Shown here: positions 9,261 through 24,146 of the stretch, piece after piece
Layout of the letters: every line of letters starts with the position of its first letter
How positions within the stretch are numbered: position 1 is the first letter of the stretch
IMG/VR virus record: IMGVR_UViG_637000105_000003
DNA from: a virus
Taxonomy: Duplodnaviria; Heunggongvirae; Uroviricota; Caudoviricetes
Direction: 5' to 3' (one strand)
DNA: 49,246 bases
Notes under the pieces: model-generated
Database searches by the model: none
What the model was told of the DNA's origin: nothing
Seen by the model: the letters and a program-made list of their open reading frames with translations, nothing else
Program-made: the position numbers and the translations under genes

Positions 9261-9931
9261 TGCTCCCCAAATACAAAACTAATTTCAGCCAGTGCCTCGT
9301 CCATTTTTTCGATGAACTCCGGCACNATCTCGTCAAAACTCGCCATGTACTTTTCATCCCGCTCAANCACGACATAATGCAGNCCTTCACGCTTCATACG
9401 CGGGTCATAGTTGGCAAAGTACCAGGCATNTTTTCGCGTCACCCACATGCTGTACTGCACCTGGGCCATGTAAGCCGATTTTATGGCCTCGAAACCACCG
9501 AGCCGGAACTTCATGAAATCCCGGGAGGTAAACGGGCATTTCAGCTCAAGGCCGTTGCCGTCACTGCATAAACCATCGGGAGAGCAGGCGGTGCGCATAC
9601 TTTCGTCGCGATAGATGATCGGGGATTCAGTAACATTCACGCCGGAAGTAAACTCAAACAGGGCTCTGGCGTCGTTCTCGTACTGTTTTCCCCAAGCCAG
9701 CGCCTTAGCGTTAACTTCCGGAGCCACACCGGTGCAAACCTCAGCAAGCAGGGTGTGGAAGTAGGACATTTTCATGTCAGGCCATTTCTTTCCGGAGCGG
9801 GGTTTTGCTATCACGTTGTGAACTTCTGAAGCGGTGATGACGCCGAGCCGTAATTTGTGCCATGCATCATCCCCCTGTTCGACAGCTCTCACGTCGATCC
9901 CGGTACGCTGCAGGATAATGTCCGGTGTCAT
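9251..9931 (-). CDS. exo: Lambda exonuclease (Red alpha); contains 4 ambiguous bases
   Basis: 226 aa, near-identical to lambda Exo by recollection; N bases at 9326, 9367, 9383, 9430 give X residues. Confidence 0.9.
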
Positions 9932-11234: not shown

Positions 11235-11367
11235 TTTTTGGGACTCCTGGCTGATTAAGTATGTCGATAAGGCGTTTCCATCCGTCACGTAATTTACGGG
11301 TGATTCGTTCAAGTAAAGATTCGGAAGGGCAGCCAGCAACAGGCCACCCTGCAATGGCATATTGCAT
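11203..11367 (-). CDS. cIII: cIII, FtsH protease inhibitor (54 aa)
   Basis: Own translation: [54 protein letters not shown], matches lambda CIII by recollection. Confidence 0.8.
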   Translation of the reverse strand: MQYAIAGWPVAGCPSESLLERITRKLRDGWKRLIDILNQPGVPKNGSNNYGYPD

Positions 11368-11439
11368 GGTGTGCTCCTTATTTATACATAACGAAAAACG
11401 CCTCGAGTGAAGCGTAATTGGTATGCGGTAACGCCGCGC

Positions 11440-12404: not shown

Positions 12405-12986
12405 ATGAACAACTCATGGTGGCAGGAACTAATGCATTTTTTCCTGCAAGGAATGACACTTAAACAGTTGATTCATATGCTAATCATCCTGATCATATTG
12501 ATTATTGTTATGCCGGTAAGCGTAAAAGAATGGATAAACCTGCATAGTCCAGAAATCCTTCCTCATTACTGGATGTATTACATCCTGTTGTTTTGCGTTA
12601 GCTATGTGCTTAACGGCGTTGTTAATTCCGCTTATCACGCTGTGACTGAAAGAATTGAGGTATTCGCTGCTCAGAAGCGCAAATCTAAAGAAGAAAAATA
12701 TGTGCAAGATTTGTTTGATTCGTTAACTCTTGGAGAAAGAGCGTATTTGGCATTCGCTGTAGCCGCTAATAACCAGCTACAAACGGAAAAGGGCGCTCAT
12801 GAATCAATTTCATTGCTCAAAAAAGGACTCCTCGTTCGAAGGCCTCCTGCTGTTGGATATCCTGATACCGACCGTTTCGTTATCCCTGAAAGCTATAGAC
12901 ATGAGTGCTACATTAGGTTTGCCGGGAAGGCAGACAGCCTTATGGATGAACTTATCGCTCAGGATAAGCATGGCAAAAACAAGTAA
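12405..12986 (+). CDS. sieB: SieB superinfection exclusion protein (membrane)
   Basis: 193 aa, opposite strand to pL operon as in lambda; hydrophobic N-terminal segments. Confidence 0.8.
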   Translation: MNNSWWQELMHFFLQGMTLKQLIHMLIILIILIIVMPVSVKEWINLHSPEILPHYWMYYILLFCVSYVLNGVVNSAYHAVTERIEVFAAQKRKSKEEKYVQDLFDSLTLGERAYLAFAVAANNQLQTEKGAHESISLLKKGLLVRRPPAVGYPDTDRFVIPESYRHECYIRFAGKADSLMDELIAQDKHGKNK

Positions 12987-13002: not shown

Positions 13003-13275
13003 TCATCTCGCCGTCAGTTGTTTTGATTTCCGGTAGCCTGCCGCGTAAAGAGCTACGTTCGGAAGACAAGTTGAACCTTCATATTTTCTGGTCAACGTTG
13101 TCAGAGTTATCACTTCTGCTCTCATTGCTGGTTTGAGCTTGCATTGCAAGACCACTCGTGAAGGGGTTGGCCTGTGTAGCTTGTCGGAGCTGATCGCCTC
13201 CTGACTTTGCAGATTTGCGCGACGAGCTCTACGGCGAGAAGCTGCGGTGCCTTTAAATTCTGTTTTTCTGGACAT
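13003..13275 (-). CDS. N: N-type transcription antiterminator (non-lambda allele), ~90 aa
   Basis: Arginine-rich motif MSRKTEFKGTAASRRRARRA at N-terminus; GGGAGG RBS; lies just downstream of boxA/boxB nutL. Confidence 0.7.
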   Translation of the reverse strand: MSRKTEFKGTAASRRRARRANLQSQEAISSDKLHRPTPSRVVLQCKLKPAMRAEVITLTTLTRKYEGSTCLPNVALYAAGYRKSKQLTAR

Positions 13276-13373
13276 GGATTCCTCCCGAATAAACTTTGGC
13301 GATGCAATCTCGAAGCTCCTCCTGAGACGGTTGCTTCGGCATTGCATCCCACAGCTTATGTGGTTGGGTGATC

Positions 13374-13419: not shown

Positions 13420-13520
13420 TGCCAGTCTGTTCCATTTGGCTTCCAGCGTCCTGCTGACGGTTAAATAGTACGATATGTACTTTACAAGATCAATACAATT
13501 TGTTGTAAGTTGGCGTGGTT
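13420..13520 (-). promoter_or_regulatory. pL / OL operator region (approximate)
   Basis: Position upstream of nutL; contains TTGTAT/ATACAA motifs also repeated in the cI-cro intergenic region. Confidence 0.35.
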
Positions 13521-13675
13521 TTTTATAACGCTTTGTATTTAATAGTGTTGTTTTTTAGCGTGGATGTATTGCCTCGGCGATGTAAGGAGAGATCAGAATT
13601 GCGTGGTTTAGTGGGTTGCATCTATTTATTTTTCAATAAATATAATTGGTTATGTGTTTTTAGGTGGGCGAACGT

Positions 13676-13708
13676 GAGGCAAAGAAAACCCGGCGCTGAG
13701 GCCGGGTT
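13676..13708 (-). terminator. Rho-independent terminator immediately after the rex-position operon
   Basis: 8-bp stem AACCCGGC/GCCGGGTT, 6-nt loop, then TTTTCTTTG on the minus strand; 4 nt after the 13712 stop. Confidence 0.55.
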
Positions 13709-13711
13709 GTA

Positions 13712-14464
13712 TTATGCTGCAAGTCTCTTAACCCAAGTCTCTCTTTTGGAGAATGGTAGAACTTGGCTTGATTCATGGAAGAGTAAGGAGAGTTGTTGCA
13801 TTTGATCACCAATTGCTTCGCTGTCTATAACAACAAATCTGTTGTTATACTCCTCACTTGAAGCTTTAAGATCAATTAGTTTCCCAAGCAATGAGTAAGC
13901 ACTATTCCAGCTTCCTCCGTGTTTCACGCTTGATGTAAAAACGTATTTAGGTATGTCGGTTTTTATTGTTACAGGGACGGTAATTTGATGTCCACTCAAG
14001 CCATATACGTTTTCACGAAGAGAAAGTGCGTCTCTAAGCTCTGTGTGATATAGATAATCAATAACCATACTTTCAAACTTTTCAGCTTGAACTGGCTGAT
14101 ACCAGTCTAACGACAAAGTTGATGCGAGTATACCAGCTCTAATTATGTTCGATGTAATCGCACCGACATCCTTTTCTGTTGCCCAAGCAATGATTTCTCC
14201 TCGAGCATTGAGTTCTGCGCCTTCTTTAAGCAGTAATTGTCGTATCTCATCAAGTCGTTTTTTGGTAAGCGAGATCCCTCTTGCCTCCATATTCATTAAG
14301 GCATCGCATCTGTCACTAACTAAATACCTACCATTGACTTCACGGATAAAGGCACCGACATGCTCTCCATCATCACAGTAAGTGAATGGACTGATAATTC
14401 TCAAGGTCTTGCCTATTGGATGGCATTCGAAACCTAGTTGTGAGATCACTGTTGAGCACATCAT
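13712..14464 (-). CDS. Hypothetical protein (250 aa), second gene of rexAB-position operon; candidate exclusion/defence component
   Basis: ORF translationally coupled to upstream gene (ATGA overlap); AT-rich relative to flanks; no motif recognised. Confidence 0.7.
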   Translation of the reverse strand: MMCSTVISQLGFECHPIGKTLRIISPFTYCDDGEHVGAFIREVNGRYLVSDRCDALMNMEARGISLTKKRLDEIRQLLLKEGAELNARGEIIAWATEKDVGAITSNIIRAGILASTLSLDWYQPVQAEKFESMVIDYLYHTELRDALSLRENVYGLSGHQITVPVTIKTDIPKYVFTSSVKHGGSWNSAYSLLGKLIDLKASSEEYNNRFVVIDSEAIGDQMQQLSLLFHESSQVLPFSKRETWVKRLAA

Positions 14465-15018
14465 ATTCCAAACCCCATTTGCCCCGACTCATCTTCAAGC
14501 GGTAAAGGTATTCTCCCAGAGTAAGTTATGTTCAGATGTTTACAGAAGTAATTCCAATACCCTACCAGGTCATCTGGGTTTATGTCATCTTCGATTGGAA
14601 ACGCTATTCTATCACTATAGTATCCAGCTTCTTCATAGTATACATGGTAGTGAGCACCGTAAATGATATCTTGGTACTTCGGATGATCGACCTTGTAACT
14701 ATTCGTGTGTTTGTCAAAGTGATAGGTATCTACCGCGAAAACCCTCTTGTTATGATAGAAAGCAATAATATTTATTTTAGGGTAAGAAATCGGGTCATCA
14801 GGTTCTGAATCCTGATCTGGTTTCCATTTCAGTTCAAACTTTAGCCCTTGTATAGGTATACAATCCTCATCCAAGGGGATGATATGGGCTTGTAGCCACA
14901 TATCAGAGCGACTTGGTTTCTGTTTCCATTTAACGCCAGAAAAGTTAACTATTTTTTTACAATAAAGTACTTTATCAACTTCTACTTGGCTTGGCTGATA
15001 ATCATCTATTTTTGCCAA
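14461..15018 (-). CDS. Hypothetical acidic, aromatic-rich protein (185 aa), first gene of rexAB-position operon
   Basis: ORF 40 nt downstream of cI stop on same strand; AT-rich; no motif recognised. Confidence 0.7.
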   Translation of the reverse strand: MAKIDDYQPSQVEVDKVLYCKKIVNFSGVKWKQKPSRSDMWLQAHIIPLDEDCIPIQGLKFELKWKPDQDSEPDDPISYPKINIIAFYHNKRVFAVDTYHFDKHTNSYKVDHPKYQDIIYGAHYHVYYEEAGYYSDRIAFPIEDDINPDDLVGYWNYFCKHLNITYSGRIPLPLEDESGQMGFGI

Positions 15019-15057
15019 TGTTTACCGCCCTGTAAATTGTAGATAAAAGTGGTTTCA

Positions 15058-15723
<666 letters not shown>

Positions 15724-15835
15724 GTCCTTATTATTACGCTCTGTACTGGAACCATCCATGCACAATGTGTATTTTTACTTGTATTCGCAAAGTACATATT
15801 GTATTTTTTTTATTCGTGTTTACTATGGAGGGCAT
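15724..15835. promoter_or_regulatory. OR operator / pRM-pR divergent promoter region
   Basis: Intergenic between divergent cI and cro; repeated TGTAT-containing dyads (CACAATGTGT, TACTTGTATTCGCAAAGTA, GTACATATTGTAT). Confidence 0.5.
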
Positions 15836-16051
15836 ATGAGCAACCTACGAAAATATCGAGAGTCACTGAATATCTCTCAAACAACACTTGCTAAGGCAGT
15901 TGGATGCACACAGGGAGCTATCGGACATTGGGAATCTGGTCGTCGCTTCCCAGACCTTAAAACATGCCGTGCTCTTGTTGCGTGCCTAAACAAGTTAGGC
16001 GCAAAAGTCAGTCTTGATGACGTGTTCCCGCCGGAACACAAAGCCGCTTAA
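15836..16051 (+). CDS. cro: Cro-like repressor (HTH_XRE, 71 aa), non-lambda allele
   Basis: GGAGGG RBS; HTH motif ISQTTLAKAVGCTQGAIGHWESG; divergent from cI. Confidence 0.7.
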   Translation: MSNLRKYRESLNISQTTLAKAVGCTQGAIGHWESGRRFPDLKTCRALVACLNKLGAKVSLDDVFPPEHKAA

Positions 16052-16107: not shown

Positions 16108-16192
16108 GTTCCAAGATATCTGACCAACTAAGGCCATATGCGTTTCCACGCATACCTTTCAACTAACTATTCACTATTGGAAATCTTAAGAA

Positions 16193-16489
16193 ATGGAAAG
16201 AACAAGTTACAGCAAACTATCACAGCGTGACGTTGATCGCGCAGAAACAGATTTACTTATCAATCTGTCAGCTATTACCCAGCGCGGTCTGGCAAAGATG
16301 ATTGGCTGTCATGAATCGAAGATAAGCAGAACGGACTGGAGATTTATTGCTTCGGTCTTGTGTGCTTTCGGAATGGCATCAGACATCAGTCCGATTAGCA
16401 GGGCTTTTAAGTATGCGCTTGATGGACTCACCAATAAAAAACGCCCGGCGGCAACCGAGCGTTCTGAACAAATCCAGATGGAATTCTGA
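16193..16489 (+). CDS. cII: cII transcriptional activator (hybrid; lambda-like C-terminus)
   Basis: 98 aa; C-terminus …LTNKKRPAATERSEQIQMEF matches lambda CII by recollection. Confidence 0.8.
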   Translation: MERTSYSKLSQRDVDRAETDLLINLSAITQRGLAKMIGCHESKISRTDWRFIASVLCAFGMASDISPISRAFKYALDGLTNKKRPAATERSEQIQMEF

Positions 16490-16521
16490 GGTCATTACTG
16501 GATCAATCCACAGGAGTCATT

Positions 16522-18497: not shown

Positions 18498-18824
18498 ATG
18501 ACTAAAAATACTCGTTTTTCCCCCGAAGTCCGTCAACGGGCAGTCCGTATGGTTCTGGAAAGTCAGAGCGAATATGACTCACAATGGGCGACAATTTGTT
18601 CCATTGCTCCAAAGATTGGCTGTACGCCGGAGACTCTGCGTGTCTGGGTTCGCCAGCATGAGCGGGATACCGGGGGCGGTGATGGAGGGCTCACCACCGC
18701 TGAACGTCAGCGTCTGAAAGAGCTGGAACGTGAAAATCGTGAACTGCGCCGCAGTAACGATATCCTTCGCCAGGCTTCCGCTTATTTTGCGAAGGCGGAG
18801 TTCGACCGCCTCTGGAAAAAATGA
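18498..18824 (+). CDS. IS629 transposase OrfA
   Basis: Identical translation to 1287..1613. Confidence 0.9.
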
Positions 18825-19711
18825 TGCCACTGCTGGATAAGCTGCGTGAGCAGTACGGGGTCGGACCGCTATGCAGCGAACTGCATATTGCCCCGTCAAC
18901 GTATTACCACTGTCAGCAACAGCGACATCATCCGGATAAACGCAGTGCCCGTGCGCAGCGCGATGACTGGCTGAAGAAAGAGATACAGCGCGTATACGAT
19001 GAAAATCACAAGGTATACGGTGTGCGTAAAGTCTGGCGTCAGTTGTTACGGGAAGGTATCAGAGTGGCCAGATGCACTGTGGCACGTCTCATGGCGGTTA
19101 TGGGACTTGCCGGTGTTCTCCGGGGTAAAAAGGTCCGTACGACCATCAGCCGGAAAGCCGTTGCCGCAGGCGACCGCGTAAACCGTCAGTTCGTGGCAGA
19201 ACGACCTGACCAGCTGTGGGTGGCTGATTTTACTTACGTCAGCACATGGCGGGGCTTCGTCTATGTGGCGTTCATCATTGATGTGTTTGCCGGATACATC
19301 GTGGGGTGGCGGGTCTCATCGTCCATGGAAACGACATTCGTGCTGGATGCACTGGAGCAGGCGTTATGGGCCCGTCGACCGTCCGGCACGGTCCATCACA
19401 GTGATAAAGGTTCTCAGTATGTATCGCTGGCCTACACACAGCGGCTTAAGGAAGCCGGATTACTGGCATCAACAGGAAGTACAGGCGACTCGTATGACAA
19501 CGCGATGGCGGAGAGCATCAATGGTCTTTACAAAGCGGAGGTAATACACCGTAAGAGCTGGAAAAACCGTGCAGAAGTGGAACTGGCCACACTCACGTGG
19601 GTGGACTGGTATAACAATCGACGATTGCTGGAAAGGCTGGGCCATACTCCTCCGGCAGAAGCAGAAAAAGCTTATTATGCTTCCATCGGAAACGATGATC
19701 TGGCAGCCTGA
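18821..19711 (+). CDS. IS629 transposase OrfB
   Basis: Identical translation to 1610..2500. Confidence 0.9.
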
Positions 19712-22637: not shown

Positions 22638-23720
22638 TTAGAACTGATAAACCAGACCTACAGCGACGATGTCGTCGGTATCAATACCAGCTGTTTTGGT
22701 AAACTTACTATCGTCAATTAAGTTGATTTTGTAATCAACAAAAGTGGACATGTTTTTATTAAAGTAGTAAGTAGCACCGACATCGACATACTTGACTAAG
22801 TCTCGGTCACCATGAACACCAAGGTCTTTACCTTTTGACTGAAGGTAAGCAACAGATGGACGCAGACCGAAGTCAAACTGATATTGTGCTACTGCTTCAA
22901 AGTTTTGTGCTTTGTTTGCAATATGGTTATTACCAAAAACGGTCATATTCTGAGTTTCAGAATATGTGGTAGCCAGATAGATATTGTTCGCATCATATTT
23001 CAGGCCTGCAGCCCATACTTCCGCATTTTTGCCGGAGGCATTGAATTTGCTCTTACCATAGGCGACCTGACCGTCAGTGCGATCTGATTTAGCATAGGTT
23101 GCACCCACGCCGAATCCTTCATACTCATAAGTAGTGGAGAAACCGAAACCATCACCATTGGCTTCAGTTACGTCAGTGCGGTCATTTTTACCCTGATACT
23201 GAGCAGCAAAGTTCAGGCCATCGACCAGACCAAAGAAGTCGTTGTTACGATAAGTTGCAACACCAGTAGTGCGACCAGTCATGAACACATCTGTTTGGGT
23301 CCAGGTATCACCACCGAATTCTGGCAGAACGTCAGTCCACGCACCGATGTCGTATGCTACACCGTAGTTACGGCCGTAATCGATTGAGCCGTAATCACCA
23401 AATTTCAGGCCTGCAAATGCAAGACGGGTTTTGTCTTTGGAAGAACCTTGAGATTCAGCACGGTTGCCTTTGAATTCATATTCCCACTGACCGAAACCAG
23501 TCAGTTGATCGTTGATTTGGGTTTCACCTTTGAAGCCAAGACGGGCATAAGTAGTATCACCATCATCTGCATCATTAGAGGAGAAGTAGTGCTTGGCATT
23601 AACTTTCCCGTATAGATCCAGCTTGTTACTGTCTTTATTATAAATTTCAGCTGCCTGAGCAGACATCGCCATCAGTACTGATGCAGCTACAGCAGAAATT
23701 GCCACTGTTAATTTTTTCAT
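22638..23720 (-). CDS. Outer-membrane general porin (OmpC/OmpF/NmpC family), prophage-encoded moron
   Basis: 360 aa with signal peptide [23 protein letters not shown] and C-terminal ...GLVYQF beta-barrel signature; opposite strand to late operon. Confidence 0.85.
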
Positions 23721-24146
23721 TGTACGCCCTTTTTTTGAACTTTTATTAAAAAATGATGTCACTGCGCGATAAATATTCATCTAATCAATGTGATTATTTC
23801 AAGATGTAAGTTTTAGTTTCTCATTTAATTTGTGAAGTAGATCTCTATTTTTATCTGAACCTTTTCTATCTAATCCTATTCATGGCTCTTGTCTGAACAA
23901 AAATAAATCTATTAGCTAATTTATATTAATGGCACTTATTTATAAGTGCTCTATAATTCTTTAGCTTAATTTAAACAAACTAAAAATAACATCGGAAATT
24001 ATTAACTGGTTATTTGTTGAAGTTTTCTTATGCATTTGTGGTGGTGTTTTGAACACTCGGTGGCATTCTCACAAATATCATTTAGTAGTTTACGTACGTA
24101 AAAAATTGGTTATGCTGTTAAGAGTGGTTACTTCGTCACACAGCTT

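Follow-up and report, generated by a model that had tools for sequence, protein, structure and literature searches.

A pair of overlapping genes, here called A and B, was found directly behind the cI-type repressor gene in a 49,246-nucleotide stretch of viral DNA from a lambda-like prophage (Caudoviricetes; IMG/VR record IMGVR_UViG_637000105_000003; the whole of this stretch is referred to below as the window), in the position that rexA-rexB occupies in phage lambda. Because of this position, the mobility of the cassette, a nuclease-type fold predicted for B, and a link to the catalogued defence candidate PDC-M24, we think it somewhat probable that A and B act in conflict with other phages, in defence or in exclusion. 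A more specific interpretation is that the pair forms a toxin-antitoxin (TA)-like abortive-infection module, in which A is the effector and B a labile partner that is lost when an invading phage shuts off host expression; we put this forward tentatively, as regards both the polarity and the trigger.

The original prediction, which was made from the sequence alone, had described two minus-strand open reading frames (ORFs) with overlapping stop and start codons, followed by a stem-loop with a T-run and forming a compact operon in the rexA/rexB slot. All of these elements were present where they had been placed (Table 1), and the operon is co-oriented with cI and closed by a terminator of the Timm type. 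The assignment of the pair to the position of lambda rexA-rexB was made because cI lies upstream, Timm and operator-like palindromes are present, and N and sieB lie to the left; the palindromes flank the cI-A-B unit on both sides. The stem of the terminator hairpin begins 3 nt past the TAA of B and spans 13708-13687, with the T-run extending to 13677. The homologous hairpin of phage mEp332 is annotated as Timm, the terminator of the pRM, pRE, and pLit transcripts, and mEp332 is 93.5% identical to positions 13600-13706 of the window over a 107-nt stretch around the hairpin; many lambdoid and Stx phages likewise share 91-96% identity with the region around the hairpin. No terminator was detected in a scan of the spacer between cI and A, and the same spacer length recurs in 24 loci that have the same repressor type. 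Promoter-like matches within the unit, which might have represented an internal pLit-like promoter, were no commoner than in shuffled sequence, and an Rfam scan assigned no RNA family to the A/B region, its sole match being a cIII thermoregulator RNA at 11322-11380 (minus strand; RF01804, 88.5 bits). Because of this operon anatomy, A and B would be co-expressed constitutively with the repressor in lysogens, presumably by transcription from pRM, and the ATGA overlap would imply that their translation is coupled.

The region had also been described as more AT-rich than its flanks, in a manner consistent with separate horizontal acquisition, and both statements were borne out. A plus B has a GC content of 39.6%, which places it among the lowest 0.4% of 1307-bp windows, compared to 46.7% for cI, 49.9% for N, and 50.6% for the whole window; on the left side, sieB and ea10 are as AT-rich as A plus B. 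The pair behaves as a mobile, AT-rich cargo cassette, in that the identical E. coli cassette is also joined to a second repressor type and, in Enterobacter, one A allele is found beside two different repressor/cro types.

The linkage of the two genes was evaluated in 103 related loci, which were retrieved through B or A and range from Escherichia to Aeromonas. It was found that A immediately precedes B, and that the stop codon of A overlaps the start codon of B, in all 103, the overlap being ATGA in 78 and 13 nt in the remaining 25; this arrangement of two adjacent, overlapping genes is that of type II TA systems. The start codon of the longest A ORF is GTG or TTG in 101 of the loci, and the conserved MAK N terminus starts at such a codon. 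The survey of gene neighbourhoods, which had been proposed for the vicinity of prophage repressors, showed a prophage repressor, divergent from a cro-like gene, as the first same-strand gene upstream in about 93 of the 103. These repressors split into approximately 13 unrelated sequence clusters; nine cluster representatives gave Pfam matches to helix-turn-helix (HTH) domains, S24 peptidase, or both (HTH_3 and Peptidase_S24 in the cluster to which the cI of the window belongs), and a tenth putative repressor had no match. In nine loci a small additional ORF separates the repressor from A, and in eight of the nine this is a DUF3024 ORF (113 amino acids; L012 4053-4394, L010 4044-4385, L013 4052-4393, plus five IMG/VR loci). 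In L010, L012, and L013, which were read directly, a repressor of the HTH plus S24 type is located further upstream of this ORF. The DUF3024 ORF of these Providencia-type loci matches the single-gene candidate PDC-S43 of the PADLOC database (E 3e-35), and two candidates are therefore stacked in this slot in some phages.

A D3-like Pseudomonas phage has the same arrangement, in the order of a CI-like repressor, a 216-amino-acid ORF, an ORF resembling A (hhalign probability 99%, E 2e-18), and a homologue of B that is 29% identical and keeps the ATGA overlap with A. The A-family ORF is absent from the GenBank annotation of this type of locus in Pseudomonas phage VB_PaD_phPA-G (L109; PP083311, 2920-3504). 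A gene for a protein with helix repeats of the form DGVI(T/D)..E adjoins A/B in L109 (2180-2830) and in an Aeromonas locus (L002, 6876-7796); a BRCT domain is present at the C terminus of the Aeromonas protein, which the Pseudomonas protein seems to resemble when inspected by eye, and this gene may be a further cargo gene.

The 1.5 kb of the window between 13600 and 15100 matches the viable phages ev207, ev017, PhiR57_1, and PhiR63_2 with 100% identity and an Stx1a-converting phage with 98.9% identity; in those phages A and B are annotated as hypothetical or DUF1828. The cassette was found in 240 of 5,426 complete E. coli genomes, always on the chromosome, in single copy, and with at least 99% identity. 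Among the carriers are the probiotic strain Nissle 1917, which has the genes as EcN_1291/1292 in its prophage 3 at icd, as well as the type strain ATCC 11775 and clone D i14, and the cassette is common in strains of the B2/extraintestinal pathogenic E. coli (ExPEC) type. Protein homologues are present in Salmonella, where they sit in Gifsy-like prophages, and in Klebsiella, Yersinia, Providencia, Xenorhabdus, Pantoea, Thorsellia, and Aeromonas. Across seven orthologue comparisons, the proportion of nonsynonymous differences (pN) was 0.10-0.35 at a saturated proportion of synonymous differences (pS) of about 0.8, and therefore A and B are under strong purifying selection; A diverges faster than B in every one of the seven (for example, 82% identity for B and 66% for A). 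Context scans of metagenome and viral collections for the most distant A relatives (21-25% identity) gave either nothing or alignments that were too divergent. The public names of the proteins are all "hypothetical" or "DUF1828", a Nissle study that covered prophage 3 listed A and B as hypothetical and did not test them, and full-text literature searches on DUF1828, DUF6978, PDC-M24, and phage accession numbers yielded no account of a function.

Protein B matches the Pfam family DUF1828 (PF08861) over residues 26-110 with 33.5 bits, compared to a cut-off of 22, and all 28 aligned homologues match as well. In the predicted structure, the N-terminal domain (residues 1-121) resembles type III secretion system (T3SS) chaperones and YbjN, and the C-terminal domain (residues 129-250) has the restriction-endonuclease-like core fold of the PD-(D/E)xK superfamily. 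The residues G155, S157, G158, H159, K173, D198, R209, D214, and Q224 are invariant in the C-terminal domain, and the Pseudomonas homologue keeps G-x-SGH, D198, and R209 and loses K173, D214, and Q224. The canonical D...(D/E)xK motif was not found in this domain, there being no acidic residue at the start of β2 or in β3. Residues 2-249 of B align with positions 4-254 of 256 in the PDC-M24B profile (PDLC04540; E 4.7e-10), and the Pseudomonas homologue matches the same profile with E 3.5e-5. The C terminus of B is RLAA in the window and AALAA in the Pseudomonas homologue; among 45 distinct sequences, 33 end in LAA and 11 in LVA, together 44. The sequence L-[A/V]-A forms the terminal residues of ssrA-type ClpXP degradation tags, and B may be a labile ClpXP substrate.

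Protein A is acidic and Tyr-rich, as had been noted (pI 5.3, 8.6% Tyr), and neither A nor B has a transmembrane-like segment, also in agreement with the original prediction. The residues K22, W31, R92, D97, N106, G121, H123, H125, F158, and P173 are invariant in A-family sequences down to 21% identity, and H104 is kept in at least 90% of sequences; judging from this conservation, the His/Asp cluster looks catalytic rather than regulatory. The C-terminal GQxx(L/F)x(L/I) tail is conserved and is disordered in the model, with a low predicted local distance difference test score (pLDDT). The family is tiny, with 20 clusters out of 1.84 billion representatives; the listed lengths of these 20 are 76-184 amino acids, and none is a longer, fused protein. 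A scored 22 bits against Pfam DUF6978 (PF22398), below the gathering cut-off of 29.6, whereas distant family members scored 19.5-22.9 bits and two homologues have precomputed PF22398 matches; A is probably a divergent relative. The match of A to PDC-M24A (PDLC04536) is weak and partial (E 4.8e-4, residues 104-163 against positions 79-134 of 148), and the matched stretch is the C-terminal core that contains the H...HxH region.

Searches by sequence of solved structures with A and B, alone or as profiles, returned nothing, and neither protein had a match in NCBIfam or, for the C-terminal half of B searched alone, in Pfam. A match to the designed protein SAKe6 (E 3e-12) was rejected as an artefact of six identical designed Kelch blades that contribute about 7 bits each. 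The comparison of predicted structures by Foldseek, which had been suggested with the original prediction, was successful in part: folds were recognised for both domains of B, but A had no fold relative in the PDB, and nothing in BFVD was below E 0.04. The earlier description of the pair as unrecognised needs to be qualified, because RefSeq annotates B as DUF1828 and the pair is close to the catalogued candidate PDC-M24.

We propose the following model for the action of A and B. The A-B cassette would be read through from the repressor gene, and so a lysogen would make both proteins continuously. A would be a stable effector, made sparingly owing to its GTG or TTG start codon and carrying an invariant Arg/Asp/His/Asn/HxH site, and B would be the partner that keeps A silent. 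The chaperone-like N-terminal domain of B could hold A, possibly by way of the conserved disordered C-terminal tail of A, and the ssrA-like end of B would make it a substrate of ClpXP, such that constant resynthesis would be needed. An invading phage that shuts off host expression, or that binds or titrates B, would cause B to be lost, and A would then act and the infection would be aborted. The assignment of A as the effector and B as the neutraliser is suggested by the weak start codon and the catalytic-looking invariant site of A, by the chaperone-like domain, the degron-like end, and the lack of canonical nuclease residues in B, and by one locus (L055) in which a 1-nt indel at about 3560-3600 frameshifts A after approximately residue 50 and leaves B intact. 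The binding of A to B, the toxicity of A, and any anti-phage effect are steps of this model that we infer.

Several points weigh against such a module. B is more conserved than A, which is the opposite of most TA pairs and fits B as an enzyme, and with a nuclease-type fold in its model B could be the effector. The degron assignment amounts to three terminal residues, which are also the end of a predicted helix, and the one frameshift in A may reflect either true inactivation or an error of sequencing or assembly. The viable phages named above carry the cassette, and therefore self-immunity would be needed if the switching off of pRM released a toxin; no candidate for sparing the phage's own lytic growth was found. 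Support from PDC-M24 comes from a candidate that is itself untested, and the match of A is partial and below any safe threshold. Finally, no experiment on A or B genes from any organism was found in the literature.

The opposite polarity must be taken seriously as a rival, given that B carries the nuclease fold and is better conserved than A. B would then be a non-canonical effector with a restriction-endonuclease fold and a sensor-like N-terminal domain, kept scarce by ClpXP, and A would be a sensor, activator, or antitoxin. We nevertheless regard this as unlikely, since the C-terminal domain of B lacks the conserved acidic residues of the nuclease motif, a weak start codon on an antitoxin gene would risk the production of too little antitoxin, the locus with a frameshifted A and an intact B speaks against A as an essential antitoxin, and the invariant cluster of A does not have a regulatory appearance. 

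The overlap of the genes, their strict linkage, a putatively labile partner, and spread with mobile elements would also be expected of a prophage-addiction (post-segregational killing) TA pair that stabilises the prophage or the immunity region and has no direct anti-phage role. This explanation is improbable, because the cassette is confined, in the loci examined, to the slot 3′ of the repressor, a slot that is used by proven defence genes, and because distant relatives are embedded in bacteriophage exclusion (BREX) or restriction-modification (RM) loci. We similarly have little confidence that A and B modulate the phage's own lysis-lysogeny switch or induction, for example with B as a competitor for ClpXP. 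There is a precedent in lambda RexA and RexB, which are stated to assist the lysogenic-to-lytic transition (Thomason 2021, as cited in PMC12315714), A and B are placed for co-transcription with cI, and B has a ClpX-type end; however, A and B have no similarity to RexA/RexB, and specific contacts with the switch are hard to reconcile with the presence of the cassette beside different cro types and repressors of about 13 unrelated types. Very improbable is a lysogenic-conversion or host-fitness factor unrelated to phages, acting for example in stress or colonisation: morons of this slot such as bstA were first tied to virulence phenotypes (PMC8585504) and the cassette is frequent in B2/ExPEC-type strains and present in Nissle, but A and B have no secretion signal or membrane segment, and the nuclease-type fold and PDC-M24 similarity point to nucleic-acid conflict.

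Table 1. Positions in the window of the cI-A-B-Timm unit and of the neighbouring features of the immunity region.
Feature	Position	Strand	Basis
sieB, left of the unit	12405-12986		
N, downstream of the unit	13003-13347		Pfam N_peptide, E 1e-32
oL-type operator-like palindromes, left border of the immunity region	13463..13503	.	Inverted repeats common to 15789-15809
Timm-type intrinsic terminator, 8-bp GC-rich stem then TTTCTTTG	13677..13708	-	Terminator scan
Gene B, 250 amino acids, ATG start, DUF1828 protein	13712..14464	-	ORF
ATGA, overlap of A stop (TGA) and B start (ATG)	14461..14464	-	Sequence
Gene A, 185 amino acids, TTG start, predicted β-rich	14461..15018	-	ORF
cI-A spacer, 39 nt, with Shine-Dalgarno-like GGGCGG	15019..15057	-	Sequence and terminator scan
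cI-type repressor (HTH plus S24 peptidase), head of the operon	15058..15765	-	Annotated as cI or LexA-family in identical phages and E. coli Nissle
oR-type operator-like palindrome, between cI and cro, pRM/pR region	15789..15809	.	Inverted repeat
cro	15836-16051		

The cI gene of the window is not translatable as a single ORF, as a patch of it (15445-15600) contains several extra bases as well as 4 Ns when compared with PhiR57_1, which is identical in other respects; Ns are also present at 9326-9430 and 36737. The clustering of Ns and extra bases in cI suggests a low-quality sequence patch rather than real mutation. A 2026 paper credited a putative small RNA, svsR, with phage protection and located it to the 3′ end of cI in NC-SV, a prophage integrated at icd in E. 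coli NC101. If NC-SV shares the immunity region analysed here, svsR would map to about 15058-15140, with A and B, which that paper left out of account, directly downstream. Elsewhere in the window, an element of the IS3 insertion-sequence family is present twice, at 1610-2500 and 18821-19711 (with 18498-18824), with identical transposase Pfam scores, and one of these copies sits just past ren in the early right operon. A general porin gene is carried at 22638-23780 (minus strand; Pfam Porin_1, E 2e-151).

If A and B are active, they would constitute a mechanistically new system in the best-known defence hotspot of temperate phages, the rexAB slot, and would be relevant to phage therapy, to the way in which prophages compete, and to the resistance of probiotic strains to phages. 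A function would then be assigned, through A, to a small orphan family that lacks a structural relative and, through B, for the first time to the widespread DUF1828 domain, and the conserved ClpX-type end of B would provide a simple handle on how the system is triggered. In its fullest form, the proposal is of a new abortive-infection module in which a novel-fold enzyme, A, is restrained by a ClpXP-labile fusion of chaperone-like and degenerate-nuclease domains, B; the module would spread as a cassette behind prophage repressors, from E. coli to Pseudomonas, and account for part of the unexplained phage resistance of Nissle 1917. Taken as a whole, this is doubtful. The "phage repressor (pr)" of Nissle was cloned and was reported to lower the plating of lambda and Stx phage about 200-fold (Bury et al. 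2018). The "pr" primers of that study map to cII (16193-16489; positions 16147-16516 of the window) of this immunity region, and not to cI.

Compared to known systems, the B N-terminal domain differs from the sensor domains of CARF-nuclease effectors (Can2/Card1) and of Shedu-type proteins with a sensor and a PD-(D/E)xK nuclease, being T3SS-chaperone/YbjN-like and not CARF; B is also without canonical catalytic residues, and no cyclic-nucleotide synthase is located near A/B. RnlA/RnlB is a type II TA abortive-infection system in which the toxin gene comes first and the ClpXP-labile downstream antitoxin acts as a sentinel of host expression shut-off. The logic that we propose for A and B is like that of RnlAB, with an upstream effector and a short-lived downstream partner, but the proteins are not homologous, B is a large two-domain protein that is better conserved than A, and for A/B the lability and toxicity are only proposed.

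RexA/RexB of lambda, the classic lysogen-expressed exclusion system, has the same slot and operon logic, in that cI is followed by two genes and then Timm in the immunity region. The original prediction had stated that neither protein matches RexA/RexB in size or in a recognisable motif, and the pair is indeed not RexAB: there is no similarity in sequence or fold, and the sizes and order differ. RexA is RdgC-like and RexB is a polytopic membrane protein, whereas A and B are both predicted to be soluble; an RdgC-like protein and a multi-pass membrane protein were not found in the pair.

The nearest catalogued relative is PDC-M24, one of 145 untested candidates that was defined from cassettes embedded in BREX, defence island system associated with restriction-modification (DISARM), or type I RM loci (Payne et al., bioRxiv 10.1101/2024.01.29.577857). 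The likeness consists in an adjacent, co-oriented A>>B cassette (FAM_00129>>FAM_00065 in the source table) and in the end-to-end match of B to PDC-M24B. The difference lies in the genomic setting, since the A/B branch is found only behind prophage repressors and not in such loci. Judged by these profile matches, A/B is a divergent, prophage-borne relative of PDC-M24.

With regard to position, the cI-N interval is a mosaic hotspot, where the abortive-infection gene bstA is found in BTP1 (PMC8585504), and the immunity region of Gifsy-1 holds either the three-gene remAIN (strain 14028s) or the single defence gene gipd474 (strain 4/74) (PMC12724215). BstA, RemAIN, and GiPD474 are thus experimentally shown anti-phage cargo directly 3′ of a prophage repressor, which is also the position of A/B, but the proteins are unrelated to A and B, and BstA and GiPD474 are single proteins. 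Because the Salmonella homologues of A/B lie in Gifsy-like prophages, identity with RemAIN was examined. The published remAIN cloning primers identified six viral contigs, and in the locus analysed in detail (L118) the 1.9-kb amplicon encodes a ParA-like ATPase (279 amino acids) and proteins of 130 and 220 amino acids; none of these three ORFs matched the A or B profiles at E ≤ 10, and the identity was rejected. Therefore, A/B is not RexAB, BstA, or RemAIN. The same Timm-bounded slot holds other unrelated cargo, namely one 345-amino-acid ORF in mEp332, three ORFs in BP-4795, and rexAB in lambda. The repressor linked to remAIN is 60% identical to the repressor upstream of the Salmonella A/B genes, and remAIN and A/B are alternative cargos of one slot. 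Taken together, the PDC-M24 matches and the proven defences in the same slot strengthen the status of A and B as candidate defence genes.

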